A stretch of DNA of 64,000 nt from Ardenticatenia bacterium (GTDB lineage Bacteria; Chloroflexota; Anaerolineae; 4572-78; NAK82): contig QEXY01000163.1 of NCBI GenBank assembly GCA_003130875.1, positions 2,136-66,135 of the forward strand, in the 5' to 3' direction. Shown here piece after piece: positions 36,557 through 52,312 of this stretch (position 1 is the stretch's first letter; every line of letters begins with the position of its first letter). Both the position numbers and the translations under genes were made by a program. The notes under the pieces are model-generated. The model worked only from the letters and a program-made list of their open reading frames with translations. It was not told the DNA's origin and searched no databases.

Positions 36557-36587
36557 GCGTGACCTGACCTCCTGGAAGAGAACGAGA

Positions 36588-36605
36588 GCGCAGAAACCTC
36601 TGCGC
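36588..36605 (-). terminator. Probable terminator or hairpin after cooC (end of the acs operon)
   Basis: GCGCAGA-aacc-TCTGCGC followed on the minus strand by pyrimidine-rich TCTCGTTCTCTT. Confidence 0.4.
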
Positions 36606-36636
36606 CCTCAATATATTCGCTGCGTTTTGACCGGTC

Positions 36637-37422
36637 TCAGGATGTTGCCATAGCTTGATCGAATGTGGCGGCAATCTGACGCGCTTCAGCTACCATCTCC
36701 GGCACCGCTTCGTAGATGGCGCGACCACGCTGATCCGCTTCCACCGCCTTGGGGTTGAAGGACAGGAAACCGATGACCGGCAGGTCGGGCAAACTTTCGC
36801 GGATGAAGGCACGGTCGGCCTCATCGCGCACCTTGTTGCCCACCACGAAGCAGCGGGTCACTCCGATGTCCTTGGCCAGACGATGGATCGTCTGCGCTGT
36901 GCTCAAGCTGCGCCGCCCTGGCTCCACCACGATGAGGAAGGCATCCACCGCGCTCGCTGTCGCCCGGCCGAGGTTCTCGATCCCGGCGTCCATATCCAGG
37001 ATCATCACCTCATTGCGGTAGAGGATGACGTAGGTGACCAGCGCCTTGAGCAGCGCGCTCTCCGGACAGATGCACCCACTACCACCCTTCGAGATGGTGC
37101 CCAGCTGCAGCAGGCGGATGCCCTGATATGTCACGCTGAAGCGATCCGGGATGTCGTCCACGCGCGGGTTAAGGGTGAAAAACCCGCCTGTCTCGCCGGG
37201 TCGAGCGCCAGTACGCTCGTAGATCAGGTCGTCCATCTCGGCGATGGGGTGCAGCTGCGCCAGTAGCTCCTCCGGAACGCCCAGCGCGTAGCCCAGGCTG
37301 GCCGCTGGATCGGCGTCGATCGCGATCACCGCATAGCCTGCCTGGGCATAGATATGGGCCAACAGGGCGGCCAGCGTCGTCTTGCCCACGCCCCCTTTGC
37401 CGGTCACCGCCAATTTGGGCAT
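36637..37422 (-). CDS. cooC: CODH/ACS nickel-insertion ATPase (CooC/AcsF)
   Basis: GKGGVGKTT, IDADP, GSGCICPE (CxC) and DMDAGIENLGR. Confidence 0.95.
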   Translation of the reverse strand: MPKLAVTGKGGVGKTTLAALLAHIYAQAGYAVIAIDADPAASLGYALGVPEELLAQLHPIAEMDDLIYERTGARPGETGGFFTLNPRVDDIPDRFSVTYQGIRLLQLGTISKGGSGCICPESALLKALVTYVILYRNEVMILDMDAGIENLGRATASAVDAFLIVVEPGRRSLSTAQTIHRLAKDIGVTRCFVVGNKVRDEADRAFIRESLPDLPVIGFLSFNPKAVEADQRGRAIYEAVPEMVAEARQIAATFDQAMATS

Positions 37423-37455
37423 CGCATACTCTCCCCAGCGCGCACCCAGTGCCGA

Positions 37456-38958
37456 CTAGGAAGCCGGCACCGCTTCTTTCTCTTGCTCGCGCGCCACTTC
37501 TGGACGCGGCAGCTCGCGCACCACCGGGCGTGGCAAGCCCGCCTCTTCGACTAGCCTTGGCACGATCGACTCCCAATGCACTGCCATAATGTGCAGGCCG
37601 TGGATGCCCGGTGTGTTTTTCAGCCGCTCGATCATCTCCAGGGCGATCGTCACCCCCATCTCGGCCTGGGCTTCCTTGTCGCCTGCTGAGTCCATGCGCT
37701 TCAGGTCGGACTCGGTGAGCACCACACCGGGCACGTCTTTCATGAAATGGGCAGCCTTGGCACTGCGCAGCGGGACGATGCCGGCCAGAATATACACCTT
37801 GTTCAGCAGATTGCGCTTGTCCAGCGCTTCCAGCCACTCGGTGAAGCGGTTATAGTCGAAGACGGGCTGGGTCTGGATGAACTGTGCGCCGGCGTTGATC
37901 TTCTTCTCAGCCCGGATGGCCTCGTACTTGGGTGGAGCACCGAAAGGCGACGCGGCAGCGCCCAGGAAGAACTTGGGACGTATCTTCATTTCGCGCCCAT
38001 CAATGTATTTGCCCTCGTCGCGCATACGGCGCAACATCCAAAGGATTTGCACTCCGTCCATGTCGAACTGGTCCGGCATAGCCATCGGCGCCGGCCCGAA
38101 GCGATGATGATCACCGGTGAGGCAGAGGATGTTGCGGATGCCCAGGCCCGAAGCGCCCACTGCGTCCGATTGGATCACCACACGGGTGCGATCGCGCGCC
38201 TGCAGCTGCATCACCGGCTCCAGGCCGGCGTCCAGGCAGAGCTTGGACGAGGCCAGGCTGTTCATCCGGCAGGTGGCCGAGGCATTATCGGTGAAGTTGG
38301 CTGCTGTCACATAGGGCTTCAACATGTTCACCTTCTTGATAAGGCCCTCCGGCGAGGCATCCAACGGTGGTGCAATCTCCGCCGTGACGGTGAACACGCC
38401 GCTGCGCAGGTTCGCCTCCAGAAGAGAGATCGGCTCGGTGTAGGCCGGTGGATGGTACTGCGAGTCCCCCTGCCACCAGTCAGGCTGGCGCAGCGCGTAG
38501 AAGAACTCCTCCCACTCGCGGTTGAACTTGGCGCGATTGAACACGAAGTCCCACGGATACGGCCCGGCCTTGCGCTTGAACCACAGCTTGATCATATCGA
38601 GCCAGGTCTCATGGCCCACCCGGTTGCCATCCACCGGCGCGTTGATCTCGAGCAGCTTGTCGAGTCGGCCCATCCGCTCGGAACGTTCATAGATGACATA
38701 CCAGGTGCATGGGCGCGAAGGATCCACTTCGCAGTGGTCAGGCGTCGCACCGCCGCACAGGCCGTTGCGCAGACCTTTGGGGCATGTCATCGGACAGACG
38801 AAGGCGGTCTCCTGCAGGATGCAGTTGCCGCACATGCGGCAACCGAACAGGGCGCCCTTAATCGCCTGCTCGAAGGCGGTGAATACCTGAACCGGCAAGG
38901 AATCGCGCTGCACCGGCATAAAAGGTGCTTGATAACGTCGTGGTGAGAACAGAGGCAT
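37456..38958 (-). CDS. metF: Methylene-THF reductase as a MetV (Cys-rich)-MetF fusion
   Basis: N-terminal CRMCGNC...CPMTCPKGLRNGLCGG...CEV...C (MetV/MTHFR_C) followed by MetF motifs (AEIAPP, NFTDN, NILCLTGD, KKINAGAQFIQTQ). RBS GGAG before ATG 38958. Confidence 0.92.
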   Translation of the reverse strand: MPLFSPRRYQAPFMPVQRDSLPVQVFTAFEQAIKGALFGCRMCGNCILQETAFVCPMTCPKGLRNGLCGGATPDHCEVDPSRPCTWYVIYERSERMGRLDKLLEINAPVDGNRVGHETWLDMIKLWFKRKAGPYPWDFVFNRAKFNREWEEFFYALRQPDWWQGDSQYHPPAYTEPISLLEANLRSGVFTVTAEIAPPLDASPEGLIKKVNMLKPYVTAANFTDNASATCRMNSLASSKLCLDAGLEPVMQLQARDRTRVVIQSDAVGASGLGIRNILCLTGDHHRFGPAPMAMPDQFDMDGVQILWMLRRMRDEGKYIDGREMKIRPKFFLGAAASPFGAPPKYEAIRAEKKINAGAQFIQTQPVFDYNRFTEWLEALDKRNLLNKVYILAGIVPLRSAKAAHFMKDVPGVVLTESDLKRMDSAGDKEAQAEMGVTIALEMIERLKNTPGIHGLHIMAVHWESIVPRLVEEAGLPRPVVRELPRPEVAREQEKEAVPAS

Positions 38959-39004
38959 CTTGTCTACTCCTACTCCAATGATATAAATCCAAAACCCACA
39001 TCCA

Positions 39005-39910
39005 TCATAGTCCAGGCAACAAGTAGGCGTAGGCACTCAGCGCAGCTTTGACGCCGCCCCCTGCCGCCACCAGAATCTGCTCCATATAGGTGTTCGTGAC
39101 GTCGCCTGCGGCACAGATGCCGGGCACATTGGTGCGCCCGCGCTCGTCAATGCGGATATGCCCGCTCGGATCCACGTCCACCAGACCCACCACCGGCTGC
39201 GAATTGGGGATCACCGCGATTTCGACGAAGAACACCCCAGCCGCGATTTCCATCTGCGACCCGTCCGGCGCGCTGACCACAATACGACGTGCATACTCGT
39301 CGCCCTGCATCTCCAGCACCTGGTAATTCTCCAGGATGGTGACGTTCTGGGCCTTCTTCAACTTGATCCCCAGGGGGCTATCCAGTACGTGAGGTTCCAC
39401 CCCCACCAGATAGACCTGGCGCGCCGTCAGGGCGATTTCCGCCGCCGCACGCACGGCGAGCTGGCCGTTGCCGATGATTGCCACCACGCGGTCGCTCATA
39501 TGCGGTGCATAGCGCAAGGCAGAGTAGCTCAGGCCGCGCATCAGGTATTTCTCTTCGCCGGGCACGTGCATGCGCTGATGTTTTACCCCGGTGGCCATGA
39601 TGACCGCCTTGCCCAAGAGCACCGCCTTCTCTTGGGTATGCACCGCAAAGCCGTCGCGATGGCGGCTTACCCGCACAGCATAGTCCTTATAGTGCGTGAA
39701 GTCCAGGCGCTCCAGCTCCGTCTTGAGCCCTTCGATTATCTCCTGTCCTTCCAGAACGATGGGGGTCTCCTCGGGCGGCAATTGCATTCGATAGTTGGTC
39801 TTGCCCCCTAGCGTCTTAGAGACGAGCAACACCTTCAGGCGCCGTCGCGCTGCGTAGATTGTCGCGGTGATGCCGGCCAGCCCACCGCCCACCACAATCA
39901 GGTCATACAT
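39005..39910 (-). CDS. TrxB/AhpF-fold FAD-dependent NAD(P)H oxidoreductase lacking the redox CxxC
   Basis: GGGLAG, ATG, GNGQLA and TNVPGICAAGDVT. The CxxC position reads GLSYSALRYAP. Confidence 0.88.
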   Translation of the reverse strand: MYDLIVVGGGLAGITATIYAARRRLKVLLVSKTLGGKTNYRMQLPPEETPIVLEGQEIIEGLKTELERLDFTHYKDYAVRVSRHRDGFAVHTQEKAVLLGKAVIMATGVKHQRMHVPGEEKYLMRGLSYSALRYAPHMSDRVVAIIGNGQLAVRAAAEIALTARQVYLVGVEPHVLDSPLGIKLKKAQNVTILENYQVLEMQGDEYARRIVVSAPDGSQMEIAAGVFFVEIAVIPNSQPVVGLVDVDPSGHIRIDERGRTNVPGICAAGDVTNTYMEQILVAAGGGVKAALSAYAYLLPGL

Positions 39911-39947
39911 GGACGTTCTTATCCTCCTCGTGCCGGGCGCGTTTCGC

Positions 39948-40868
39948 CTAGACGCGCAGATAGGAGTCGGTATAGATGACCTGATTATACAGGATCTGCG
40001 CCGTCTTGAACAATGCGACCTGATCCGGATCGCTCATATCCACATCCTCGGCGGTCAGGCGTTCACCGGCCGCGGTCTTGTCATACAGCTTGAGCACCAA
40101 ACGGCCCAACGCAGTGCTGTCGTCGCGTTGGGTGATGATACGGATGAACTCGTTCTGCTGCTGGTCCAAAGGGTTGGCGATCACATAGTCCAGCCCCACC
40201 GCCATCAGCATCACCAGGTAAGTGCGGTTGATCAGCGGCCGCATCTCGTTCGGCACCGCGTTCGACACATTGCTGAGCCCGGCATTGGTCATAGGGGGCG
40301 GGTCACCCGCTAGCTTGAGCAGGCGGATTGCCTCGATGCACTCCGGGCAGTACTCCTGACAGCCGCTGACGGTCAGCACCAGCGGGTCGATCAGCAGGTC
40401 TTCCATCGGGATGCCCAGCTCGACAGCGCGCGGGATGAGATATTCCAGGGCGATGTTGACGCGCTCCTCGGCACTCACCGGAATGCCCGACTTTCCCATG
40501 GTGAGGGCGATGAGCTTGGCGTTGTACTTCTTGGCCAGCGGTGGCACCGTGGCGAGGCGCTCTTCTTCCGCCGAAGTGGAGTTGATGATGCATTGATGCT
40601 TGGCCACCTTCAGCCCTTCCTCGATAGCGGCCAGATTGGTGGTGTCCAAAACCAGAGGCACATCCACCACTTCCTGAATACCCTTCACCAGCCACGGCAT
40701 GATCTCGTGGCCAGCCTTCTTCTGCGGGCCGATGTTCAGGTCGAGATAGTGTGCCCCCGCTTCCACCTGTTTGAGCGCCAGCTCCTGGAAGAAGCGGATG
40801 TTCTTCTCGGCCAGAGCCTCTTTGACCCGTGGCGAGATAATATGAATGTTCTCACCTATGATATACAT
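39948..40868 (-). CDS. acsE: Methyl-THF:corrinoid Fe-S protein methyltransferase
   Basis: IIGENIH, LDLNIG, LDTTN, IINS, LLIDP and GLSNVS. Position in the acs operon supports the call. Confidence 0.93.
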   Translation of the reverse strand: MYIIGENIHIISPRVKEALAEKNIRFFQELALKQVEAGAHYLDLNIGPQKKAGHEIMPWLVKGIQEVVDVPLVLDTTNLAAIEEGLKVAKHQCIINSTSAEEERLATVPPLAKKYNAKLIALTMGKSGIPVSAEERVNIALEYLIPRAVELGIPMEDLLIDPLVLTVSGCQEYCPECIEAIRLLKLAGDPPPMTNAGLSNVSNAVPNEMRPLINRTYLVMLMAVGLDYVIANPLDQQQNEFIRIITQRDDSTALGRLVLKLYDKTAAGERLTAEDVDMSDPDQVALFKTAQILYNQVIYTDSYLRV

Positions 40869-42854
40869 CTAACTTCCTCCTTGAACAGAACGGGATATGG
40901 GATTGTTTCGGCGCGCCGCCAAAACTTCCGCCACAGATGGGAAATGCGCCAGATCGGTATGCGGCAGGAACAACGCCGAGGTGAACGCTTCGTAAAATGA
41001 GTTATCCGCTGAGAGCTCCAGGTAAGTCATCTTCTGGGCGATGGTGGTCAAATGATGGCGGAACTCGCGATGGAGCAACGCCAACAGCGCACCCTTCAGG
41101 GCGGTGTTGCCCAAAAAGTGGAATTTCTCCCACGGCAGGTCAGGCAACAGCCCGATCTGGATGGCCTTTTCCACGTTGATATATTGACCGAATGACCCAC
41201 CCACAAGCACCCGTTCCACTGTGGACAGGTCAGTGCCTACGCTGCGGGCCATCACTGTGAAACCGGCGTAAATGGCAGCCTTGGCGCGGATGAGGTTGTC
41301 GATATCCACCTTGGTGATAGCGATGTCGCGCCCATGCGCTGTCTCGCTGCCCCACGCCACGACATATTCCGGCCCGTGCTCGCCGCGGCGGATGCGCGGG
41401 GAGCCCATGTCAAAGTTGAGATTGCCCGCCTTGTCGATCACGCCCGTGATGAACATCTCGGCGAGCAGGGAAATCAGCCCCGAGCCGCAGATACCCCGCG
41501 GCGGAGTCGGCTGGCCTTGCGCTTCCAGCTTGGGATCGGGGATCACACGATAGGTCGGCTCGTAGGTCTGGCTGTTGATCCAGACCTCCTCGATGGCGCC
41601 TACTGTCGCACGCATGCCATCGCGCACCCCGGCGCCTTCGAAGGCGGGACCCGCCGAACAGGCACAGCTGACAAGCCAGTCGCAGTCGCCCAGCACCATC
41701 TCACCGTTGGTGCCGATGTCCAGGAAGAGCGCCACCGTCTTGCTCTCGCACATCTGCGAGCCGAGGATGCCCGCCGGGATATCGGCACCGACATAGCTGG
41801 CCACGCCGGGCAGACAATCGACATGCGCCTGCGGATGAATGGCGATGCCGAGCTCGGCGGCCTGCACCGGCGGCGGCTGGTTGATCGTGGTGATAAACGG
41901 CTCGAGGCGGATCGAATTAGCAGGCAATCCCAGCAACAGGTGGATCATGGTGCTGTTACCTGCCACGGTCATCTTGTAGACCTCGCTGGGGCGGATGCCG
42001 GCGCGCCCGCAAGCACGTTCGAGAATCTGGTTGATGGTATCCACCACCAGTGCCTGCATCTCCTGGAGATTGCCGTTGCGACTTGCGTAGATAATGCGCG
42101 AGATGACGTCCTCGCCGCGCTTGATCTGGGCGTTGTATTCCGCCGCCTGTGCGGCGATCTCACCGCTGAGCAGATCCACCAGGTAGAGGCTCACCGTAGT
42201 CGTGCCCACGTCCACCGCCGCGCCCCAGAGATGGTTCGTAGCGTGTCCAGGCACCACGTCCACCAGGCGCGGCGGCCCCTGCGGCCGATCCCAGGTGTCC
42301 AGTTCCACCACCGCTGTGACCATCCAGTTCGCCTCGCGCAGCGTAGTGCCCAGCTTGCGCAGCGTCGGCAGGTCGATGGTCAGCTCGGAGATGCCATGCT
42401 GGAGTGCCATAGCGCGCTTCAAGCGCGACCAATCATCCGTCTGGTCGTCCATCGAGGGCGGATCGAGCGTCAGCGCCATCAACTGCATGGGCTGATGCTG
42501 CTTGGGGTCATAGACAAACGGCAGGGTGACCTTCGTCGCGATGCGGTCCGTGACCAGACGGCGCTCGATGCGCTCCTGTGGGGGAATGGTGACCGTGACA
42601 TCTCCTTCGAGCACCGTCTGGCAAGCCAGGACATAGCCGGCGGCGCGGTCCTCCTGGCTGAGGCGCAGCTCCGAACGGCTGCGCACCGCCTGCCGATTGT
42701 CCACGAGCACGGCGCAGCGTCCGCAACGTCCCTGGCCGCCACATGGGATGTTCAAGTCCAGCCCTGCCTGGCGCACTGCCTCGACGATCAGCGTGCCAGT
42801 AGGCACCTCGACCGTTTTTCCAGAAGGCTCGAAACGTACCCGGTGGGTCGCGAT
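40869..42854 (-). CDS. acsV: Reductive activator of CFeSP (RACo/AcsV, 2Fe-2S + ASKHA DUF4445); 5' end extended to an ATC codon
   Basis: CGGQGRCGRC, DVGTT, DIGTNGE, GPAFEG and GICGSG. The frame upstream of GTG 42806 encodes xATHRVRFEPSGKTVE, which belongs to the ferredoxin-like domain. GGAGG RBS precedes ATC at 42854. Confidence 0.9.
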   Translation of the reverse strand: MATHRVRFEPSGKTVEVPTGTLIVEAVRQAGLDLNIPCGGQGRCGRCAVLVDNRQAVRSRSELRLSQEDRAAGYVLACQTVLEGDVTVTIPPQERIERRLVTDRIATKVTLPFVYDPKQHQPMQLMALTLDPPSMDDQTDDWSRLKRAMALQHGISELTIDLPTLRKLGTTLREANWMVTAVVELDTWDRPQGPPRLVDVVPGHATNHLWGAAVDVGTTTVSLYLVDLLSGEIAAQAAEYNAQIKRGEDVISRIIYASRNGNLQEMQALVVDTINQILERACGRAGIRPSEVYKMTVAGNSTMIHLLLGLPANSIRLEPFITTINQPPPVQAAELGIAIHPQAHVDCLPGVASYVGADIPAGILGSQMCESKTVALFLDIGTNGEMVLGDCDWLVSCACSAGPAFEGAGVRDGMRATVGAIEEVWINSQTYEPTYRVIPDPKLEAQGQPTPPRGICGSGLISLLAEMFITGVIDKAGNLNFDMGSPRIRRGEHGPEYVVAWGSETAHGRDIAITKVDIDNLIRAKAAIYAGFTVMARSVGTDLSTVERVLVGGSFGQYINVEKAIQIGLLPDLPWEKFHFLGNTALKGALLALLHREFRHHLTTIAQKMTYLELSADNSFYEAFTSALFLPHTDLAHFPSVAEVLAARRNNPISRSVQGGS

Positions 42855-42877
42855 GGTTCCCTTACCTCCTCAGGCGC

Positions 42878-44224
42878 TCATCCCCAGCGCGTCTTCAGGT
42901 AGTTGGGCAAGTCCACTGCCTCACGCGGCCCGACGTTGATCTCCCAGCCGGGCAGCTCCTCCTCGATCTCACCCAGCAACACGGCAACATGGCCAGGGAT
43001 GATAAGACGCTTATGGTTGATCTTCTGCTCGATGCCGGTGCTCTTCACCGTCTTGGCGATGCGCTCCGCGTCGAATTTGCCAGCCGCCCAGGCAGTCAAC
43101 ACGCTCATCCCCTCCGCGTCCGCCACCAACAGCCAGCCCGGCAGGCCGCTGCTCTCCACCTCGTTCGCCACCGAGAAGTATGTGATCGAGAAATTGGTGG
43201 TGATCATCAGCGGGTCGGATGGACCGGGATGGTTGATCTCGTAGACACCGGGCAAGACTTGGATGGGCTTCTGCGGATCGGTGAAGAGATTGGCGCGCAA
43301 CACGATGAGTGGATAGGCCATGGCTGGGTCGAACTGATCGAGCACGATGAAACCGGCGTACTTGGCGATGTGTTGTGCGGCGAGGGTGATGTCATCACCG
43401 GCAAAGGCGATCAGCGGATAGCCCACCTTGCGCTCATTTTTCCTGAGCGCCAGCCGCCGCAGCTGGGTAAACGCTGCCAGGCTGCTGGCATGGTCGCGCG
43501 TGCCGGGATCGAGCACCAGATCTTCCACGCCGGCGTTCTTCACCTGCTCGGCCAGATCGGCCAGGGCGTTGAGGTCGCCGTTCGGTCCCAGCACCGCTAG
43601 AGGCACCTTATACTGCGCCGCCAGCTGGGCCATCGCCTGCCAGTTCTCCGCACTGGCAGCCCACAAGAGCGGCGTCGTGCCCTGCGCCGCTTTCAAACCC
43701 GCCTCAGCCGTCGCGGGGTCGGTGGCCATAAGGATGAGAGGGAAAGGACACGCCGCTTTGACCGCAGCCACGGTCGCTCCGAAGTCACCGCCAGCAGCCT
43801 CCACCGCCACGCCGTCCAGGCTCAACGACATCCCCACGTAGTCCACAGTGTAATCGGCCACTGCCTTGGCCACCTGTGCGGCGTCGGGCTGGGTGTCCTT
43901 GACGCGCACGAACAGCCCCGGCGGGTGATAGAAGGTCTTCTCATGGCGATGGAGCACCAGCTCGTTGCCGACTTCCAGCTTCTTGGCGCTGCCAGCGACA
44001 GTGATCAGCCGGATCGGCGGCGCGGCGGACTCCTCCAGCTGGCGCTTGGATTCTTCTTCCACATAAGGACACAATGACAGATCTGCCTGCTTGGCAGCCA
44101 ATTTCATCGCAAAGGCGAGACAGGTGGGATACCCACACTCCTTGCAATTGGCGTGGGCCTTGACTTCCGGATTCGTGCTGCTGGCCGGTAACAGCTTATA
44201 GATTTGCAGGCCGGTGAGAGCCAT
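42878..44224 (-). CDS. acsC: Corrinoid Fe-S protein large (gamma) subunit
   Basis: MALTGLQIYKLLP...NCKECGYPTCLAFAMKLA...CP, TTNFSITY and GMSVLTAWAAGKF. Confidence 0.97.
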   Translation of the reverse strand: MALTGLQIYKLLPASSTNPEVKAHANCKECGYPTCLAFAMKLAAKQADLSLCPYVEEESKRQLEESAAPPIRLITVAGSAKKLEVGNELVLHRHEKTFYHPPGLFVRVKDTQPDAAQVAKAVADYTVDYVGMSLSLDGVAVEAAGGDFGATVAAVKAACPFPLILMATDPATAEAGLKAAQGTTPLLWAASAENWQAMAQLAAQYKVPLAVLGPNGDLNALADLAEQVKNAGVEDLVLDPGTRDHASSLAAFTQLRRLALRKNERKVGYPLIAFAGDDITLAAQHIAKYAGFIVLDQFDPAMAYPLIVLRANLFTDPQKPIQVLPGVYEINHPGPSDPLMITTNFSITYFSVANEVESSGLPGWLLVADAEGMSVLTAWAAGKFDAERIAKTVKSTGIEQKINHKRLIIPGHVAVLLGEIEEELPGWEINVGPREAVDLPNYLKTRWG

Positions 44225-44281
44225 AATGGATTACCTCCGTCTCTGGACTGTCTGTCACATCATACCCTGGGCGAACACTGC

Positions 44282-45232: not shown

Positions 45233-45378
45233 GAGCGAAAACCTCCTCTTATCTGTTTGAATCCCTTGATGGATAATGGCGATGAACAACTAGCAGGCTC
45301 GACGGAGTCAAAGCGAGCAGATTGTCCCACGCCGGGCGGATGCTGCGCTCTAGGGGTGATCTTCCTGGCTGGCTATGC

Positions 45379-45777
45379 TCAGCTAGCTTCAGCACACATT
45401 GCGGCGACGACATCGCTCAGCGACAAAACCCCAACCGGTCGGTTGGGTGTGCGACCTCCTTGCACGATGAGCAATCGGCGTAGCCCCTTGTCCAGCATAA
45501 TCTGAATGGCTGCCTTCAGCAATAGGTCACCGGGCACGGTGACCACATTGGGTGTCATAATCTCTTCCGCCTTGCGGTGTTGCCAATCACCCTGGACGTA
45601 CGCGCGCGCCAAATCCACCTGCGAGATAACACCCTCGGCACGTCCGCTATCGTCCAGGACGAATATAGCATTAATGGAATATTCGCGCAATCTGCGCGCC
45701 ACGTCGATCAAGGGCTCATCCGCCCAACAGGTGATCACCCCGCGATGCATGACATCCCGCACCAGCTTTTCGCTCAT
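45379..45777 (-). CDS. Stand-alone tandem CBS-domain protein
   Basis: VRDVMHRGVIT...GVISQVDL and AEEIMTPNVVT...GVLSLSDV. RBS AAGGAG. Confidence 0.9.
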   Translation of the reverse strand: MSEKLVRDVMHRGVITCWADEPLIDVARRLREYSINAIFVLDDSGRAEGVISQVDLARAYVQGDWQHRKAEEIMTPNVVTVPGDLLLKAAIQIMLDKGLRRLLIVQGGRTPNRPVGVLSLSDVVAAMCAEAS

Positions 45778-45862
45778 TTTGCTCGCTCCTTTCCGAGCTA
45801 TCCACCCTTTCCTGTCCGTCTATGTGACAGGATGACGGTTACCACCTTCGCAAGAATCCTTG

Positions 45863-45901
45863 CAGTGGGCAGCGGCAAGGTATTCATGCCGCTGCCCACT
45901 G
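45863..45901 (-). other. Strong intergenic stem-loop directly after acsB, without a U-tract
   Basis: Perfect 15-bp inverted repeat CAGTGGGCAGCGGCA-9 nt-TGCCGCTGCCCACTG. Confidence 0.75.
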
Positions 45902-45911
45902 GCATATCCCA

Positions 45912-48191
45912 TCAGAACATTGGATCCATCGTCAGCGCCGGATGGCCTACCTTCTCCATCCAGGCCAACAAGCCCTCCACGTCGGTGCAGATGGTCTCGT
46001 CAGCGATCTTGTTGATCAAATCCGGGTCACCTTCTCGCTCTGCCACTGCCTTAAGTTCCTCGGCCATGGTCTGCTTGAGGAAGCTGCTCATCCACACCAC
46101 ACGTTTGAACCCGCCATCCGCCGAGAGGAACTTGGGGCTGGTGAGGAAGTATTTACCGACGCCCATCACACCGGGGGTCTGCAGCCCGCCGCCGGCGATG
46201 CCAGCCAGGGTGCTGAAGGTCATACCCGCCGGCGTCATGCTCGGATCCTCGCGCGACACCACCATCACCCCGTTTGCCTCCGGGATGACCATCACGATGC
46301 ACTCGAAGCAGCCGCATGCGGTCATGGGGTTCTCGGTGATGGAATACATAGCTACCTCGTGCACCGTGCCATGAGATGCCTGCTCGACGAAGGCGTTGGG
46401 CCCCTCCCAATAGCCCTTGACCGGGTCGATCATGCGTCCCTTCTTGATGGGCTGGTTAGGACCGGTGGGGTTGATCTCGTAGCTCGCCTTGCAGTCGAGC
46501 CAGTTGTAGGCGCCGCACAGACCGAGCCGCTGCGGCGTCACCACGCACACGTGGTTGGGCGCGAAGCTCTGGCAGAGGGTGCAGGAGTAGAACTCGTCCA
46601 CCGCCTCGTCGGTCAGGTCAGCCAGTCGCTGGTTGCGATAGGCGTATGCCGCGCGTGCCTTCTCCAACCACTCGGCGTGCAGCGCAGGGTCGGTGATGAT
46701 CTTCACCTGCACTTTGTCGACGATGGCGCCGAAGTCGGCGTGGAAACGGGCGTGCAGGATGTCGCCGAAGTGGCGCAGGGTGAAGCCCTTCTCAGCAGCC
46801 ACCTTGCTGATGCGGATCCAGGTGATGTCGCGCTGGCCGATATGCTGCACACCTGATGCACCGTTGATAAAGTAGTGGATCTGACGCTCCAGCACCGGCT
46901 CGAAATCTTGCTGCATCTTGCGGCCGGCCACCTCGACCAGGATGCCCAGATCCATCGCCCCGCCCACCGGTACATCGTCAAATGAAGGGCCGATGACCTC
47001 GATCTTGCCGTCCTCGACCTGGTCCAGGTCGACCATGCGCAGGTACTCGAAGGCACGGCTGTGCTTGCCACCGAACTCGACGCGCATATCGGCCTTGCGC
47101 ACCACTTCGCCCTCGAACGCTGAGCCGTAGGGCACCGGGATGGGCACCTCGGTCACACGCACCTTGACGCCGCGCACCTCGATGCACTTCTGTACCAACC
47201 GCTCGGCCTTCTCCATGTCATCCTTGCCGGGGATCTCGTTCCACGGCATCGAGATGACATGCTCATAGGGGGTGATGCCGGTAGGCAAAATCTCAGGGAT
47301 GACCGTGTCGGCGATGACGGGGAAGCCGAAGTTGATCGCTCCGGCGGCTGCGGCATACTTCAGGTCGTCCACCTCGCCCAGCGCCAATACGAAAGCAAAG
47401 ACGCGATCTTTGTTATAGAGCAGAATATCGCGTGCCATACCGCCCTTGAGGCCGCCGAAGGTGAGTGCCGAACGGGTGGCAAATCCCAACGCATAGATGG
47501 CGCTGATGGTGTCCAGGCCGAAGGGAACTGTGTAGGTGTCGTAGCCCAGCTCGACACCTTCTTCCATCAACTGGTGCAGGATGCTGCGTCCATTGACATT
47601 GCCGCTCAGGAAGACGAGGATGTTGCGCCGCTGCAGCTCGCGCACAATCTTGACCGCCACCTCGTTGCTCTTGGCGCAGCCGATCACCGCGGCGAAGCCG
47701 GGCATGCGGCCGTCCACCAGCTGGATGCCCCAGCTGCGCAGCTGGATGTCGTCGATGGGGCCGTTGAGATGGCCATCTGCCTCGCCGCCCAGCTGTTCTG
47801 GTGTGTACTGCGTGCCGCCCGCCAGGCGGAAGCCGGGAATGCGTTGCGGCTCCAACTTATAGACGAAGCGGATTGCCTCGATCGCTTCTGCGGCCAAGAG
47901 AGTCGCCATGCCGCTGTCGAGCGTCTCACCCAGATAGGGCGTCCAGTGTTTGCTGGCCGGCAGCGGATGCAACAACGAGCGGGCGTGTTCCAAAACCGGC
48001 TTGAGATGGCCCAGCTTGGTCACCTCGATCCCGGTCATGCCATAAATGACCGGCAGGTAGTAGGCAGTATTGGGAAAGGCCACTGGGGTGTCGGGGCCTT
48101 TCTCGGCCAGAGCTTTTTGCAGCATCAACTCCGCTTCGGTTACTAGGGCATGGGCACCGCGCATTGCGCGCGTGGCGATGTATCGGGACAT
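45912..48191 (-). CDS. acsB: Acetyl-CoA synthase (ACS, bacterial type)
   Basis: FPNTAYYLP. A-cluster ligands CTLCQSFAPNHVC...GLCGA and TACGCFEC are intact. Confidence 0.97.
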   Translation of the reverse strand: MSRYIATRAMRGAHALVTEAELMLQKALAEKGPDTPVAFPNTAYYLPVIYGMTGIEVTKLGHLKPVLEHARSLLHPLPASKHWTPYLGETLDSGMATLLAAEAIEAIRFVYKLEPQRIPGFRLAGGTQYTPEQLGGEADGHLNGPIDDIQLRSWGIQLVDGRMPGFAAVIGCAKSNEVAVKIVRELQRRNILVFLSGNVNGRSILHQLMEEGVELGYDTYTVPFGLDTISAIYALGFATRSALTFGGLKGGMARDILLYNKDRVFAFVLALGEVDDLKYAAAAGAINFGFPVIADTVIPEILPTGITPYEHVISMPWNEIPGKDDMEKAERLVQKCIEVRGVKVRVTEVPIPVPYGSAFEGEVVRKADMRVEFGGKHSRAFEYLRMVDLDQVEDGKIEVIGPSFDDVPVGGAMDLGILVEVAGRKMQQDFEPVLERQIHYFINGASGVQHIGQRDITWIRISKVAAEKGFTLRHFGDILHARFHADFGAIVDKVQVKIITDPALHAEWLEKARAAYAYRNQRLADLTDEAVDEFYSCTLCQSFAPNHVCVVTPQRLGLCGAYNWLDCKASYEINPTGPNQPIKKGRMIDPVKGYWEGPNAFVEQASHGTVHEVAMYSITENPMTACGCFECIVMVIPEANGVMVVSREDPSMTPAGMTFSTLAGIAGGGLQTPGVMGVGKYFLTSPKFLSADGGFKRVVWMSSFLKQTMAEELKAVAEREGDPDLINKIADETICTDVEGLLAWMEKVGHPALTMDPMF

Positions 48192-48194
48192 AGC

Positions 48195-50210
48195 TCACAC
48201 CTCCACACCATATAGAGCAGCACGCCGCTGCGCCAATGGCAACGCCTCCAGCTCGAGCACGCGGCGGTCGCCGCTGCGCCCGAAGCGGCTTGGATCGTAC
48301 GCCGGCAGCTTGAGCGCGGCGCGCTTCTTGTCAATGTGTTCCAACGTGCGGCGGATCATCTCGTCCGGATCGTTGATGAACTCCAGCTTGCCGCCGTAGA
48401 GGCGCTCCCAGCCTTCGCTGAGGTAGCGCAGCACCAGATCGCTGTCCGAGACACGGTCGGGCATGCCGCTCACTGGCGAGGCGCCACCGAAGATGACATA
48501 GGCGCCCGACGCCACACAATAGGTGGCAATGGCCAACGCTTTTTCACTCATCCATTCCGGCGCCAGGCCGACCGCCGGGATCTGGTCGATGTCGTCGCCC
48601 AATCCCCCTTCGGCGACCATCTGCGTGAGCACGGTCAGGATGCGCGAGTTGTCCACGCAGGAGCCGACATGCAACACCGGTGGAATGCCCACCGCCTCGC
48701 ACACCTCGCGCAACCCAGGGCCGACATGCTCCAGGCCCGCTTCACCCACCATCAGCCCAGCTTTGGCGCTGGCGATGGCACCGCAACCGGTCTCCAGGAT
48801 GAGGACATCCTGCTTGAGCAGCTCCTTGGTCACATAGGTGTGCAGATAATCGTGCGGGCTGCGCGGGTTGTTGCAGCCGACGATCGCCGCCGCGCCGCGG
48901 ATGCGCCCGGCCATAATCGCGTCGTTCAGCGGCCGGAAGGAAGCGCGGTAAGTGCCACCCAGCATATAGTTGATATATTCATGCGAGAAGCCTGGGATCA
49001 GATCCTCGCGCACATCCGGGATGCGCGGCTCCGCACGGTTCTTGTAATTGTCGATGGCGCGCTTGAGAATTTGCTTGGCGATCGTCAGCGCCTTGCTCTC
49101 TTCGAACTCGATATGCACGGCGCCCTTGATGCGCACCTTGGGAGATGTGGTGATGATCTCGGTATGGAACTTCTGCGCCAGCGAGACCAGCGCCTGCATG
49201 ATGCATTGCACGTCCACCACCATCGCCTCAACCGCACCGGTGAGGATGGCCAGCTCCTGTTGCAGGAAGTTGCCTGCGGCGGGGATGCCCTGGCGCATCA
49301 GGATCTCATTGGCAGTGCAGCAGATACCGGCCAGGTTGACGCCCTTGGCGCCGGCTGCCTGGGCATAAGCGATGATCTCCGGATCCATCGAGGCGGCCAC
49401 GATCATCTGGCTGAGCGTCGGCTCGTGACCGTGGACCACCACGTTGACCATGTCCCTGCGCAGCACACCCAGGTTGGCCTGTCCCACGATAGGTGCCGGG
49501 GTGCCGAACAGGATATCGGAGATGTCCGTGCCGATCATGCTGCCGCCCCAGCCATCGGCCAGCGCCGTGCGTACCGCCTGCTGGAGCAGGTGCTCCATAT
49601 CTTGATCGTCGCCGATGTGGGTGCGGTGCAGACACTCCACCACCTCGCGGTCAATGCCACGCGGCACCACCCCCAGCTCGCGCCACAGCTTCTGGCGCTT
49701 GGCAGGTGCGCGGCTGATCAGGACAACCTCGCCCTCCTGCTGGCCGAACTGTGCCAGGTAGAGATCGGCCAAGTCGTTGGCGATCTCATTGGGCGAACGT
49801 CCCTCGATCGGGATGCCGTAATGGGCTGCCAGCGTGCGCAATTTGGCCACGTCGCGGATATAGTAGCCCTCGGCATGGCCGTTGGCGGTTGCCTTGAGCG
49901 TCATCGCCATCCCGCGGCCGTGATCGGAGTGTGCCGCAGCGCCGGCAGCGATCATGCGCACCAGATTGCGCGCCTGGATCACGTCGATGGTGGCTCCACA
50001 CACGCCGGTGGCGCCGTCCTTGGTGAGGCGACAGGGGCCCATGCCACACATCTTGCAGCACATGCCGGCGCCGCCGATGTTACACGGCGCCATCGCCTCC
50101 GCACGGCTGAAGGCGGTGCTGACGCCCAACTCTTCGGCGCGCTGCAACATCTGTTGCGCCGCCGGATCCACACTGCGCTTGCTCAGGTCACTTTCCTTTT
50201 CCCTAGCCAT
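48195..50210 (-). CDS. acsA: Anaerobic Ni-CO dehydrogenase catalytic subunit
   Basis: CNIGGAGMCCKMCGMGPC, AAAHSDH, HGHEP, GICCT, GCNN, ETGCG, GSCVDN and SEKA. Confidence 0.97.
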   Translation of the reverse strand: MAREKESDLSKRSVDPAAQQMLQRAEELGVSTAFSRAEAMAPCNIGGAGMCCKMCGMGPCRLTKDGATGVCGATIDVIQARNLVRMIAAGAAAHSDHGRGMAMTLKATANGHAEGYYIRDVAKLRTLAAHYGIPIEGRSPNEIANDLADLYLAQFGQQEGEVVLISRAPAKRQKLWRELGVVPRGIDREVVECLHRTHIGDDQDMEHLLQQAVRTALADGWGGSMIGTDISDILFGTPAPIVGQANLGVLRRDMVNVVVHGHEPTLSQMIVAASMDPEIIAYAQAAGAKGVNLAGICCTANEILMRQGIPAAGNFLQQELAILTGAVEAMVVDVQCIMQALVSLAQKFHTEIITTSPKVRIKGAVHIEFEESKALTIAKQILKRAIDNYKNRAEPRIPDVREDLIPGFSHEYINYMLGGTYRASFRPLNDAIMAGRIRGAAAIVGCNNPRSPHDYLHTYVTKELLKQDVLILETGCGAIASAKAGLMVGEAGLEHVGPGLREVCEAVGIPPVLHVGSCVDNSRILTVLTQMVAEGGLGDDIDQIPAVGLAPEWMSEKALAIATYCVASGAYVIFGGASPVSGMPDRVSDSDLVLRYLSEGWERLYGGKLEFINDPDEMIRRTLEHIDKKRAALKLPAYDPSRFGRSGDRRVLELEALPLAQRRAALYGVEV

Positions 50211-50213
50211 TGA

Positions 50214-50816
50214 CTATTCCTCCTCATTTTGTCTACGCAACACACCAAACCCCGGACACGGCCACAACGGCCGGCCTTGATAATGAACCCGCTGCTCGAA
50301 GCTCACCACCCTTTTAGACTGTTCATAGGCGACCGTATGGCGGAAGTAGGGCTGTTGGCTGCCGTTCTCGGTCACCGCGACCCCGGTCTCGACCGGCAAC
50401 GGCAAATCCCCGGTGTAGCCGGCCTCTTCCAGGCGTTTTTGAATTTCCTCCTTGCTCACCTTGGCTGGATCGTAGGTCACCTCCACGACGTGGAAAGCGC
50501 TGCTGGCATAGATATCCTCGACGCCGGGGATCGCCTCCAGGATGCGCCGCACCTCCAGTACATGGTGGTCACCGTACAGAAGCGGTAATTCGAACACTGC
50601 TGTCTCCATTCTTACCCCCTTTATCCTCAATTGTCTGGCCAGCTCCAGGACCGCTTTGGCCTCGTAGCGGCGATGCCCGCCCAAAGTGCGCACCGCGGGC
50701 AACAACCCCGCCTCGGCCCAGCGCGTCACCGTGCTGGGCGACACGCGAAAGAGCTCCGCCACTTCCGAGCGGGTGAGCAACCGATCACCCTCTTCTTCCA
50801 AACTCCTCAGAAGCAT
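50214..50816 (-). CDS. BldC-like HTH fused in frame to an HMA-like domain (GDHH variant)
   Basis: LLTRSEVAELFRVSPSTVTRWAEAGLLPAVRTLGGHRRY (BldC/MerR-type HTH), then METAVFELPLLYGDHHVLEVRRILEAIPGVEDI...VEVTYDP...LEEAGY (HMA fold). Confidence 0.8.
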   Translation of the reverse strand: MLLRSLEEEGDRLLTRSEVAELFRVSPSTVTRWAEAGLLPAVRTLGGHRRYEAKAVLELARQLRIKGVRMETAVFELPLLYGDHHVLEVRRILEAIPGVEDIYASSAFHVVEVTYDPAKVSKEEIQKRLEEAGYTGDLPLPVETGVAVTENGSQQPYFRHTVAYEQSKRVVSFEQRVHYQGRPLWPCPGFGVLRRQNEEE

Positions 50817-51092
50817 GCGAGCGACCTCCCATCCATTCCATCCGATTGGATCCCTATCCTCAGCGCTGCTATGCTATGTTGCGCGTCTCGCACGCGCACC
50901 ACCAGGCGCTGTCTGTATGCAATTTTGCCTGGGGAATCTCCAAAAATGCAAGAATAGATTGCACTTTTTGCGCGCTTTGAGCGTTTTGCACATTCGCAAC
51001 GAACACAGTTTCTACTATACACCAAGTTGCGCGACAGTGGAAGATACAAATGCACTAAATTATTCATCTGATTGCACTATTGGTGACACTCT

Positions 51093-51773
51093 TCACACAC
51101 CGCTGATGAGGCCGTGCTCCACTGCATAAGCGACTGCTTCCAGGCGGCTGTGCACGTGTAGCTTGGTGAGGATGCTCTGGATATGGTTGCGCACAGTGGG
51201 AGGGCTGACCGATAGGGTCGCGGCAATGGCACGGGTGCTTTGCCCGCGTGCCAGCAATCCGAGGATCTCATATTCGCGGCGCGTCAATCTGCCGCCGGGA
51301 GGAGGAAGGGGCGCAACGGGAGGGAGCGTGACGACATCCCGCTCGCGCAGCCGCTCAACTGCTTCCAGCACACGGGCGACGAATTGCTCGTTGAGCTTGT
51401 TCTGGGTGGCATCGCGGAAGAGCACCACCGCCAGCCATGTCTCGGGGTTTTGCGAGGTCATCAGGGTGATCATGGAGAGGTTGATCCAGCGTGGCTTGCC
51501 CGTTTGGGTGCGCACACATGTGTCGTAGCTGCTCACCGGTATGCCGGCCAGGGCAGCCGCCACTGCCCGACGATTGTGCGCCGTCTGCACAGCGCTGTCG
51601 CTGCCGCAACACTCCAACAAATCCCAACAGTCGCGCCCGACCGCGTCGGCGTGCGAGTAGCCCAGGAGCTGCTGGGCCGCCGCATTCCAATACACGATGC
51701 GCTGTTCGCTATCCACGATGAACACGCCATCCGCTGCGTTGAGGAATGATTGAATCAGGTCGTCTATCGTCAT
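51093..51773 (-). CDS. PAS-domain LuxR-family one-component regulator
   Basis: DGVFIVDSEQRIVYWNAAAQQLLGY (PAS) and LTRREYEIL...TVRNHIQSILTKL (LuxR HTH). Confidence 0.92.
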   Translation of the reverse strand: MTIDDLIQSFLNAADGVFIVDSEQRIVYWNAAAQQLLGYSHADAVGRDCWDLLECCGSDSAVQTAHNRRAVAAALAGIPVSSYDTCVRTQTGKPRWINLSMITLMTSQNPETWLAVVLFRDATQNKLNEQFVARVLEAVERLRERDVVTLPPVAPLPPPGGRLTRREYEILGLLARGQSTRAIAATLSVSPPTVRNHIQSILTKLHVHSRLEAVAYAVEHGLISGV

Positions 51774-52312
51774 AGGCTTCTGTTCTCCCGATGATGCGCT
51801 AGTCACCTGACCGTTTTACCGCGACTGGTTGATCGGCCCAGGTTCTCCAGTAAAAAAATTGGTCGTTCTCAATCCATTTACAAGGGGATGACCGCATGCC
51901 GATCAACCGGTTGTATCATACATGGGAAAGGGAAAAATAAGAAAACTGAGACCGATTCAATGCGTCGCCTAGCTCTGAACCATCCAGCCCCACATCCACG
52001 ACGGGTGCGCGCTCATCGCCCGCCAGAGGTTGGTGGCATCGTACCACTATCCGGGCGAGAGGTGTAATTATGGATGGTACAAAGGTCGACTCGAGTGTAC
52101 GTTGCAGATTGCCTGTTTGGCCCACCACAAGCGCGTCATTCCAATTGACTGGACGGTGGGTTCGATATCTTGCCTGTCCCCACTCCGTTGATCGCTTATC
52201 CGTAAACAAACTATCAGAGAGTTAGAAAATGTTCATTTGCGCAGGCCACATGGGTGGGCTAGAATGCGCACGCCCGATCAGGACCGCTACCGATCAATGG
52301 AGGAACCGAGGC

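Follow-up and report, generated by a model that had tools for sequence, protein, structure and literature searches.

The locus analysed here, part of a window of 64,000 nucleotides (the whole stretch of DNA under study), raises the question of whether the unusual genes that accompany its CODH/ACS core replace canonical partners of the pathway or have histories and roles of their own. The original prediction favored replacement. It recognized an acsA-B-D-C-V-E, metF and cooC core, five accessory genes (a BldC-HMA fusion, a PAS-LuxR protein, a CBS protein, a CxxC-less TrxR-fold flavoprotein and a fused MetV-F), and the absence from the locus of cooF/ferredoxin, cooT/J, cooA/rcoM, Hdr-Mvh and RnfC2. 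As an inventory this description was accurate: all core genes were found, with domains and metal motifs in support, the five accessory genes lie in or beside the operon, and no ferredoxin/cooF, cooT/J, cooA/rcoM, hdr, mvhD or rnfC gene occurs within positions 36637-51806. The accessory genes have to be read one by one. Only one of them, hma, is an undescribed partner of the Ni enzyme CODH that is conserved across many lineages; the rest are patchily distributed or tied to different partners.

A transcribed CODH/ACS operon

The locus is a genuine CO2-fixing (Wood-Ljungdahl) cluster, carried by an uncultured mat-dwelling member of the Anaerolineae and transcribed in nature. The ORF list and Pfam searches define 12 tightly spaced genes on the minus strand (36637-51773), in the order PAS-LuxR, BldC-HTH::HMA (hma), acsA, acsB, CBS (cbs), acsD, acsC, acsV (RACo), acsE, TrxR-like (trxl), MetV-MetF fusion (metVF) and cooC (Table 1). 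The segment hma-acsA-acsB-cbs-acsD-acsC-acsV-acsE-trxl-metVF-cooC was shown to be a complete bacterial CODH/ACS operon, with intergenic gaps of 0-134 nt. AcsB carries the A-cluster motif CGC at residue 626 and CooC a CIC motif at residue 117. A genome search identified acsA as the sole CODH, and cooC was the single CooC-family match in the genome (tblastn with the window CooC, E<=1e-5). The true start of acsD is probably the ATG at 45232, and the probable start of PAS-LuxR is the ATG at 51773, its longest ORF beginning at a GTG at 51806.

Table 1. Features of the CODH/ACS locus, in order of transcription
Feature	Position	Strand	Evidence
PAS + LuxR-type HTH regulator	51093-51773	-	Pfam PAS_9/PAS + GerE
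Operon promoter and 5' leader	50817-51092	-	Limit of longest RNA contig at 50992, 176 nt before hma start
hma, BldC-type HTH + HMA fusion	50214-50816	-	Pfam HTH_17/MerR + HMA
acsA, Ni-CODH subunit	48195-50210	-	Pfam Prismane, 533 bits, 6.9e-160
acsB, acetyl-CoA synthase	45912-48191	-	Pfam CODH_A_N + CdhC + ACS_CODH_B_C
cbs, stand-alone CBS-pair protein	45379-45777	-	Pfam CBS x2
acsD, small CFeSP subunit	44282-45289	-	Pfam CdhD; ORF translation
acsC, large CFeSP subunit	42878-44224	-	Pfam FeS + CdhD
acsV/RACo, reductive activator of corrinoid protein	40869-42806	-	Pfam Fer2 + RACo linker, middle and C-terminal domains
acsE, methyl-THF:corrinoid methyltransferase	39948-40868	-	Pfam Pterin_bind
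trxl, TrxR/AhpF-fold flavoprotein without redox disulfide	39005-39910	-	Pfam Pyr_redox_2
metVF, fused MetV-MetF methylene-THF reductase	37456-38958	-	DUF5981 (MetV) residues 51-136, MTHFR 207-499
cooC, Ni-insertion ATPase	36637-37422	-	CbiA/ParA-type P-loop GKGGVGKT
Terminator-like hairpin, operon end	36583-36610	-	12-bp stem, then T-rich tail

RNA data came from four microbial-mat metatranscriptomes of one habitat, as assembled contigs, in which depth reflects expression poorly. One contig (45534-50992) covers cbs, acsB, acsA and hma, another of ~3 kb (36573-39614) covers trxl, metVF and cooC, and multi-kb contigs together reach from hma to cooC. The genes flanking the operon are without coverage, which was absent at 51316-52400, over the PAS-LuxR end of the locus, and falls at 36000-36546. 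These contigs are consistent with one transcription unit that extends from ~176 nt 5' of hma to the hairpin after cooC, where the 3-kb contig terminates. A TATAGT sequence lies ~20 nt upstream of the contig end at 50992, and the leader contains several copies of the word (G)TGCA(A/T)T. An Rfam search of this leader gave zero matches, and its fold was no more stable than those of shuffled sequences (z = -0.69).

A DHH-type HMA protein linked to CODH

Among 301 sampled Anaerolineae genomes, acsB was found in 160 and hma, always in single copy, in 142; the two occurred together in 141 (Fisher p = 2.5e-63). In the lone hma genome without acsB, acsA adjoins hma on a truncated contig. The hma gene was directly upstream of acsA in 69 of 76 loci (0/4 in loci without acsA), the commonest order in Anaerolineae being fhs-hma-acsA; fhs is unlinked in this window. 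The same placement directly upstream of acsA was recovered in four genomes of other Chloroflexota classes, three of which also have fhs before hma. Note that ~13 genomes have acsA and lack hma, which is consequently not essential; families f13, f21 and f27 are lineages that do without it.

The protein consists of a BldC-type HTH (residues 12-62), an HMA fold (residues 70-135) and a conserved tail (FRHT...RPLWPCPG) that extends 45-65 residues beyond the fold. The HMA matches to Pfam and NCBIfam ranged from sub-threshold to threshold. An AF2 model gave pLDDT values of ~85-92 for the HMA core and <50 for the tail, and Foldseek aligned the model with MerP (1osd) and CopZ (2qif) at TM 0.85-0.89. 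Where CxxC would be expected, the metal loop reads YGDHH; across the family it reads (A/G)DHH, with the DHH invariant in all relatives, and the invariant residues include P78, D83, H84, H85 and an AGY motif. The stop codon of hma and the ATG of acsA are 3 nt apart, and the last codons of hma double as the acsA Shine-Dalgarno sequence, GAGGAGGAA, from which we infer that hma is translationally coupled to acsA. Two tail types exist. Type B ('WPCPG') accompanies high-identity AcsA in 15 cases and low-identity AcsA in 1, and type A ('MSGEFRKY') accompanies low-identity AcsA in ~52 cases and high-identity AcsA in 0. Tail type tracks the AcsA clade, yet simple co-inheritance of neighbors could give the same pattern. 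Two candidate ligands in the tail, H160 and C187, are missing from type A, so that the tail is no universal metal site.

We propose that hma belongs to a Chloroflexota-wide HMA-fold family in which the Cu(I)-type CxxC loop would have turned into (A/G)-D-H-H. Judging by genomic position and invariance only, the protein most likely binds a divalent metal through Asp-His-His, with Ni2+ the obvious candidate. It would act as an accessory protein or chaperone rather than as an obligate subunit, probably docking on CODH or CooC by its clade-specific tail.

Possible regulatory additions and the CBS protein

The N-terminus of hma matched the NCBIfam model HTH_BldC (NF033787) with 77.2 bits (cut-off 77), and its HTH residues are 55-58% identical to the BldC structures 6ama and 6amk (TM 0.8-0.9). 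The fusion is limited to 7 of 69 hma genes, in two or three families, and the PAS-LuxR gene to two families. Full-length PAS-LuxR orthologues were restricted to members of this genus (80% identity) and three other loci (L042, L046 and L058; 40-42%). They invariably lie upstream of HTH-fused hma and never of the unfused form, and one PAS cysteine (GRxC) is conserved. Internal Met70 of hma (ATG at 50609) corresponds to the start codon of unfused relatives. It appears that hma gained an N-terminal BldC domain and an upstream PAS-LuxR gene here and in one further family, in what looks like a local regulatory addition, possibly for metal-responsive autoregulation; an unfused form may still arise from Met70.

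The CBS protein retains G-h-h-S-x-x-D at both sites, and in 37 of 73 loci a CBS gene separates acsB from acsD. The CBS pair would be a frequent, optional operon member, probably a regulator acting via an adenosyl ligand.

The TrxR-like flavoprotein, MetVF and the wider genome

The TrxR-like protein has SALR in place of CATC. The family has SxxS, with a CxxC of any kind in just 2 of 121 relatives. The FAD and GxGxxA (NAD(P)H) motifs are intact. Its score against TIGR01292 was 189 bits (cut-off 343), and the nearest PDB entries were TrxR/AhpF proteins (1e-41), followed by TrxR-type FNRs (1e-14). The gene occurs in 79 of the 301 genomes, 64 with acsB and 15 without. A malic enzyme gene lies immediately upstream in 33 of 40 loci away from acs, with folD next in many, and also adjoins it in nearly all acs-linked loci. 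This neighbor is a bona fide malic enzyme (1e-134 to PDB 3nv9); the window's own genome has only a 41%-identical paralogue. The protein would be part of a conserved malic enzyme/TrxR-like/folD module. It is predicted to be incapable of dithiol chemistry although both cofactor motifs are kept, and the best reading is that it shuttles electrons from NAD(P)H to the methyl branch. Here, the gene would have lost its malic-enzyme neighbor and now adjoins metVF. The co-transcription of trxl with metVF would agree just as well with a function tied to MetVF in this genus.

Fused MetVF follows acsE in 16 of 64 loci. A second fused copy (44.6% identity) lies on contig C195, together with HdrCB, MetF, MetV, MvhD, a giant HdrA-GltD-like protein, a second MvhD, a tandem HdrA and CBS-ACT, and the same genome holds three further Hdr/MvhD sets. 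The window protein would be an MTHFR resembling type II. Of the three MetVF sets that the genome has, it is the one best represented in the available metatranscriptomes. From these runs the C195 cluster yielded only short, thin RNA contigs (150-280 nt), a difference that speaks against carried-over DNA as their source. Searches elsewhere in the genome located fhs, folD, fdhA and several Hdr sets; with fdhA, fhs and folD the Wood-Ljungdahl pathway is complete. CooT (PF10133) was absent from the whole genome. A hypABFCDE cluster lies 4.5 kb upstream of the locus, and genes for the Ni chaperones HypA and HypB lie 10 kb upstream in the window. These nearby hypA and hypB could deliver Ni without hma.

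Alternative explanations

The operon together with these gene-by-gene readings is, as a whole, the account we consider probable, and its chief value lies in the undescribed DHH-HMA partner of CODH. The replacement model, which pairs BldC-HMA with CooT/CooJ, PAS-LuxR with CooA/RcoM, and TrxR-like plus MetVF with Hdr-Mvh/RnfC2, and makes CBS an energy-charge sensor, draws on the presence of all five genes in or beside the operon, the genome-wide lack of CooT, the co-transcription of hma, trxl and metVF with acs genes, and the near invisibility in RNA of the Hdr-linked MetVF cluster. However, synteny and genome searches have already refuted it in part, and we regard it as unlikely. CooF, CooT, CooJ, CooA and RcoM are partners of monofunctional CooS/Ech systems and, to our knowledge, not normal members of acs operons; their absence is consequently unremarkable, nothing was 'replaced', and the label 'non-canonical' was overstated. 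Other canonical partners do exist elsewhere (C195 and the three Hdr sets), and hypA and hypB are close by, although the C195 set is scarcely present in RNA, so that the data do not establish these partners as the ones in use either. Lineage specificity held for the BldC fusion and PAS-LuxR, confined to few families, but failed for hma, which is phylum-wide and without an HTH in 62 of 69 loci. Conservation with acs was strong for hma and held in about half of the loci for CBS, but not for TrxR-like, whose conserved partner is malic enzyme, for fused MetVF, or for the restricted PAS-LuxR and BldC parts. At the other extreme, the accessory genes could be unrelated passengers (a generic metal chaperone, a stress flavoprotein, generic regulators) with no role in the pathway, every one of their proteins coming from a large, functionally diverse superfamily and some acsA genomes doing without hma. 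This is very improbable given the co-occurrence of hma with acsB in 141 of 142 cases, the fixed position and orientation across classes, co-transcription, and the invariant DHH motif.

Two narrower proposals concern single proteins, and both seem to us decidedly doubtful. TrxR-like could be the NAD(P)H-oxidising subunit of fused MetVF in this genus, a new MTHFR type by analogy with RnfC2 in type III. The 46-nt gap, the single RNA contig over trxl, metVF and cooC, the adjoining or nearby metVF in three other loci (L015, L037 and L098) and the intact cofactor motifs agree with this, and purified type II MetVF is without an NAD(P)H site, its physiological donor being an open question (PMC8760232). 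The persistent malic-enzyme neighbor, the four genomes with MetVF after acsE and no TrxR-like (G183, G236, G080 and G037), and the 15 TrxR-like genomes that lack acsB speak against it. Similarly, hma might be a ligand- or metal-sensing transcription-factor module, not a chaperone, its unfused forms using a separate DNA-binding partner. The resemblance of the BldC part to solved BldC-DNA complexes, the fusions in two or three families, their co-occurrence with PAS-LuxR and the repeated TGCA(A/T)T words of the leader would suit a sensor. But the HTH-free majority lies within the operon, flanked by fhs and acsA and far from any regulator gene, and translational coupling and a shared RNA contig with acsA and acsB better suit a structural or maturation partner.

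Comparison with known systems

The locus resembles the acs clusters of Moorella thermoacetica, Acetobacterium woodii and Clostridium ljungdahlii in its acsA-E, acsV/RACo and cooC genes with metV/metF nearby and in its intact domains and metal motifs. It differs from these acetogen clusters in the HMA-like gene translationally coupled before acsA, in the CBS pair between acsB and acsD, and in the fusion of MetV with MetF and unlinked fhs. It has a single CooC-family gene, whereas in many relatives a further, distantly related CooC-like gene (25-30% identity) is inserted between acsV and acsE. Among MTHFR types, type II is MetVF and type IV is HdrCBA-MvhD-MetVF (PMC8760232; Chloroflexi example in PMC5736913). 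Like type II, the window protein has MetV and MetF domains and no other partner domain; unlike it, the protein is one polypeptide, co-transcribed with TrxR-like and cooC. The C195 cluster matches type IV by gene content, so that this genome holds both type II-like and type IV sets plus the second MetVF fusion.

The TrxR-like protein shares the two-Rossmann TrxR fold and the FAD and NAD(P)H motifs with low-Mr TrxR and the AhpF C-terminal module, and, as in TrxR-type ferredoxin/flavodoxin-NAD(P)+ reductases (YumC class; PMC10294844, PMC4626851), the redox-active CxxC is missing. Though far under the TrxR cut-off, its sequence is nearer to TrxR/AhpF than to these FNRs. Its chain stops at residue 301, against 329-344 residues in the FNR chains that it matched, and so has no comparable C-terminal extension. 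Unlike both classes, it is genomically paired with malic enzyme.

Streptomyces BldC is a stand-alone protein of 68 residues with no effector domain, whereas here a BldC domain is fused to a DHH-HMA. CooT and CooJ are Ni chaperones of the Rhodospirillum rubrum-type CODH (PMC6006190). A functional analogy with hma is possible, these being small proteins encoded next to a CODH whose own His or Cys ligands would suit Ni; however, they share no sequence or fold relation, and hma is without a CooJ-like His-rich tail. Finally, hma shares the beta-alpha-beta-beta-alpha-beta fold of the CopZ/MerP/Atx1 HMA metallochaperones (PF00403) but has (A/G)DHH for CxxC and an extra conserved tail, and while those proteins are tied to Cu or Hg transport, hma is tied to Ni-CODH.

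Gene content of the acs operon

The CODH/ACS cluster of the original prediction is present, its genes lying in one orientation on the minus strand in the ORF listing and in Pfam and NCBIfam scans. The window corresponds to positions 2136-66135 of contig C130, in an assembly of 195 contigs. It encodes a Ni-CODH, an ACS, a two-subunit corrinoid Fe-S protein, a methyltransferase, RACo and a CooC-type ATPase. AcsB carries the A-cluster motif (CGC at residue 626, with the [4Fe-4S] cysteine motif CTLCQSF...C...C upstream) and CooC a CxC motif (CIC at residue 117). The core is a standard, ordinary bacterial acs cluster. The operon as a whole is a variant of a known system, and its chief interest is an undescribed partner of CODH, the HMA-fold protein with an Asp-His-His (DHH) loop that is encoded by hma.

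Coordinates of the operon genes and of other features discussed here (window positions unless a contig or locus is named)
Feature	Position	Strand	Basis
PAS-LuxR	51093-51773	minus	Pfam: PAS + LuxR/GerE
hma leader/promoter	50817-51092
hma, BldC-HTH::HMA	50214-50816	minus	ORF + Pfam/NCBIfam
acsA	48195-50210	minus	PF03063 (Prismane/CooS), 533 bits, full length
acsB	45912-48191	minus	three ACS domains
CBS pair (cbs)	45379-45777	minus	Pfam
acsD	44282-45289	minus	Pfam
acsC	42878-44224	minus	Pfam
acsV / RACo	40869-42806	minus	Pfam
acsE	39948-40868	minus	Pfam
TrxR-like flavoprotein (trxl)	39005-39910	minus	Pfam
fused MetV-MetF (metVF)	37456-38958	minus	Pfam
cooC	36637-37422	minus	Pfam
Amt-like and radical SAM/SPASM genes	52229-54960	plus
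hypA-hypB-hypF-hypC-hypD-hypE	56342-62169	minus
Hdr-linked MetVF cluster	C195:12643-26917
MvhD (FlpD) with in-frame TGA	C195:15885-16253 (locus L147, about 4886-5254)

Inside the cluster there is, as originally noted, no gene for cooF/ferredoxin, cooT/J, cooA/rcoM, hdr, mvhD or rnfC. CooT was not found anywhere in the genome, and the genome-wide search for RnfC returned a single borderline RnfC_N match (26.9 bits, on contig C180). A complete hyp cluster for [NiFe]-hydrogenase maturation, with a HypA that retains the N-terminal MHE Ni motif, lies on the same strand 4.5-10 kb upstream of the operon; canonical Ni chaperones are therefore encoded next door to acs. On the plus strand, and transcribed away from PAS-LuxR, lie a gene for a divergent Amt-like protein of the membrane (545 aa, matching Ammonium_transp weakly) and then one for a radical SAM/SPASM enzyme.

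Many Anaerolineae acs operons (loci L019-L096) carry a second CooC-like gene (25-30% identity, AcsF-like) between acsV and acsE; it is missing from this genome and from the clade with window-like AcsA, its loss coinciding with the type B hma tail described below. Between acsC and acsV, about 10-12 relatives (L060-L088) have membrane alpha/beta-hydrolase-like and PAP2 phosphatase-like genes (protein families f15 and f20, assigned by sequence reading). Downstream of acsE the gene content varied among the 64 loci scored for this region: 19 had a gene for an HdrA-GltD-like protein (some of them together with MetV and MetF), 16 one for fused MetVF, 12 one for malic enzyme and 11 one for a TrxR-like protein.

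Distribution of hma and its link to acsA

We sampled 301 Anaerolineae genomes evenly, 160 of which contain acsB, and scored 80 fetched acsB loci with the window's proteins by tblastn. Synteny counts were taken from tblastn because greedy ORF calling on these high-GC loci gave antisense artefact 'families' (f10, f17, f18, f21 and f22). The hma gene lies directly upstream of acsA in 69 of 76 loci and in none of the four loci without acsA, some of the apparent misses being region boundaries that cut off the gene. A profile search recovered hma in 142 of the 301 genomes, only one of which has more than one copy, and 141 of the 142 also contain acsB (Fisher p = 2.5e-63); in the sole exception acsA adjoins hma on a truncated contig. 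The commonest gene order is fhs-hma-acsA-acsB. Furthermore, four genomes from other Chloroflexota classes have hma directly upstream of acsA, three of them with fhs before it, and the classical CxxC HMA proteins of these four genomes are unlinked to acs. Three taxonomic families (f13, f21 and f27, numbered separately from the protein families) keep acsA, unlinked from acsB, and have no hma. This distribution rules out hma as an obligate CODH subunit and makes it an accessory.

The rest of the accessory set, which had been read together as a lineage-specific variant, fared unevenly in this survey, and the original interpretation is supported in part. While hma proved strongly conserved, the CBS gene between acsB and acsD is kept in about half of the loci (37/73), and the BldC fusion and PAS-LuxR are restricted to few lineages: the BldC HTH occurs in only 7 of 69 hma genes (this genus, locus L019 and taxonomic family f42), and full-length PAS-LuxR only upstream of HTH-fused hma.

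The HMA domain lacks CxxC, as had been claimed, its loop reading YGDHH here and (A/G)DHH in 69 relatives. The conserved part of the protein comprises an HMA fold of ~65 residues, in which P78, D83, H84, H85 and an AGY motif are invariant, and a tail. An AF2 model of residues 70-135 has pLDDT of about 85-92 and matches MerP and CopZ in Foldseek with TM 0.85-0.89. AlphaFold is confident in the core and leaves the tail unmodelled, as is typical of segments that fold on a partner. Two types of tail were distinguished, B (FRHT...RPLWPCPG, that of the window) and A (...MSGEFRKY). Type B pairs with an AcsA clade 77-83% identical to the window's and type A with a 58-67% clade (15 B/high, 1 B/low, about 52 A/low and 0 A/high). 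The BldC label also held (NF033787, 77.2 bits where the cut-off is 77), the model of this part having a BldC-like fold and showing 55-58% identity to the solved BldC structures 6ama and 6amk.

Public annotation of hma is limited to 'HMA domain protein', 'CopZ' or 'excisionase', and our literature search found no publication linking an HMA/CopZ-like protein of this kind to CODH. To our knowledge, Ni delivery to CODH/ACS is poorly understood beyond a few organisms with CooT or CooJ. A small protein whose gene stands almost always in front of acsA throughout the phylum, in predicted translational coupling with it, and whose metal loop appears to have been remade from Cys-Cys to Asp-His-His, is a concrete and cheap candidate to test for this function.

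Transcription of the operon

Four microbial-mat metatranscriptomes contained 75-82% of the words sampled from window positions 47000-51800. One RNA contig (45534-50992) covers cbs, acsB, acsA, hma and the 176 nt that precede hma, where it ends, and another (36573-39614) covers trxl, metVF and cooC and ends at a predicted terminator hairpin (36610-36583). PAS-LuxR and the genes beyond it had no RNA coverage, and the downstream GH57 gene almost none. We read hma to cooC as one transcription unit, with PAS-LuxR probably outside it and expressed at a low level. DNA contamination, which could in principle yield such contigs, was rejected on the evidence of the flanking genes and the Hdr-linked MetVF cluster of contig C195, all almost uncovered in the same runs.

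A gap of 3 nt separates the hma stop codon from the ATG of acsA (the last hma codons form GAGGAGGAA), and the two genes are predicted to be translationally coupled. The 176-nt leader had no riboswitch match in Rfam at E<=1 and folded no better than its shuffles; a sigma-70 promoter scan gave no more sites than chance, with none in the leader. The word (G)TGCA(A/T)T occurs several times in the leader/promoter region of hma, in places as imperfect inverted pairs, and these copies may be operators for a BldC-type or LuxR-type regulator.

The TrxR-like flavoprotein

The redox CxxC is indeed absent from trxl, which has SALR where TrxR has CATC, and SxxS holds throughout a family of >120 clusters (52-93% identity). 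Sequence similarity places the family closest to TrxR/AhpF and far from the TrxR-type ferredoxin/flavodoxin-NAD(P)+ reductases (FNRs), the match to solved FNRs being weak (1e-14 to 1e-10). A search with the protein alone returned four near-identical relatives and unrelated TrxRs, and was replaced by whole-genome searches. These found the gene in 79 of the 301 genomes, of which 64 also contain acsB and 15 lack it.

Away from acsB, a malic enzyme gene lies immediately upstream of the TrxR-like gene in 33 of 40 loci, folD often follows the TrxR-like gene, and acs-linked copies show the same pairing with malic enzyme. This neighbour is a genuine malic enzyme. The genome studied here has a malic paralogue of only 41% identity, and same-genus loci read acsE-trxl-metVF, without malic enzyme. 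The comparative signal ties the TrxR-like protein to the malic enzyme/folD module and not to MetVF; the proposal that it is the electron-input partner of MetVF is left as no more than a genus-specific possibility. Gene neighbourhood suggests that the protein serves the NAD(P)H economy of the cell. The three-gene module of malic enzyme, TrxR-like protein and folD recurs in Anaerolineae (L097-L136; L015, L020, L022 and L037), often adjoining fhs, acsE or metVF. Our literature search found no description of a CxxC-less TrxR with malic enzyme, nor of the module, and this recurring unit of Anaerolineae C1 clusters merits its own study.

MTHFR genes and canonical partners elsewhere in the genome

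Other pathway genes were located elsewhere in the genome, with fhs on contig C126, folD on C133 and fdhA on C45. The cluster on C195 starts with an HdrC/B fusion, followed by MetF, MetV and MvhD. Next come an HdrA-GltD-like protein of 1539 residues, another MvhD, a tandem HdrA of 1050 residues and a CBS-ACT protein, and then another fused MetVF, which shares 44.6% identity with that of the window. There are three MetVF sets in the genome in all, and three further Hdr/MvhD sets elsewhere. The MvhD gene between metV and the giant hdrA contains one in-frame TGA, which could encode selenocysteine or be a sequencing or assembly error.

The original prediction would have lost force if canonical partners were encoded elsewhere and did the job. 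They are encoded, but nothing indicates that they fill this role in the mat habitat, where their RNA contigs are thin. The acs-linked metVF lies on a 3-kb RNA contig with a depth of about 13, and the C195 cluster yielded in the same four runs only 150-280-nt contigs with depths of 2-5, contig depth being only a rough measure of expression. By that rough measure, RNA in the four mats covers much more of the partner-less fused MetVF than of the Hdr-linked set. This expression evidence is the smaller share of the operon's interest; it and the co-transcription of metVF with trxl bear on the bioenergetics of type II methylene-THF reductases (MTHFR).

The boldest joint reading is that trxl was recruited in this genus to oxidise NAD(P)H on behalf of the fused MetVF, that the DHH-HMA protein delivers Ni to CODH, and that its BldC-fused form autoregulates the operon. 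We consider it improbable that all of this holds. If it did, trxl with MetVF would constitute a fifth type of methylene-THF reductase and a natural answer to the question of the electron donor of MetVF-only (type II) enzymes.

Comparison with known systems

The C195 genes correspond to the type IV MTHFR set, with hdrA, hdrB, hdrC and mvhD adjoining metV and metF (Oppinger et al., PMC8760232), a set already described in marine Chloroflexi (PMC5736913). The window's metVF is not of this type. With MetV (PF12225), MetF (PF02219) and no Hdr, Mvh or RnfC2 partner encoded beside them, it has the gene content of type II, a class characterised by ferredoxin-dependent, NAD(P)H-independent activity, although type II enzymes have separate MetV and MetF subunits and here the two are fused.

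The TrxR-like protein differs from thioredoxin-disulfide reductase (TIGR01292) in lacking the redox CxxC, and its score of 188.8 bits falls below the cut-off of 343.45. With TrxR-type FNRs it shares a TrxR fold without CxxC and the FAD and NAD(P)H motifs; it stops at residue 301 and has none of the C-terminal FAD-stacking extension of these enzymes. The regulator combines PAS with LuxR/GerE, unlike CooA, a CRP-family haem protein, or RcoM, which joins PAS to LytTR. BldC itself is a small DNA-binding protein that stands alone and has no effector domain, whereas here it is fused to a 130-residue module of HMA and tail. Finally, hma shares with the HMA metallochaperones (PF00403) a ferredoxin-like beta-alpha-beta-beta-alpha-beta fold but not their M-x-C-x-x-C metal-binding loop.
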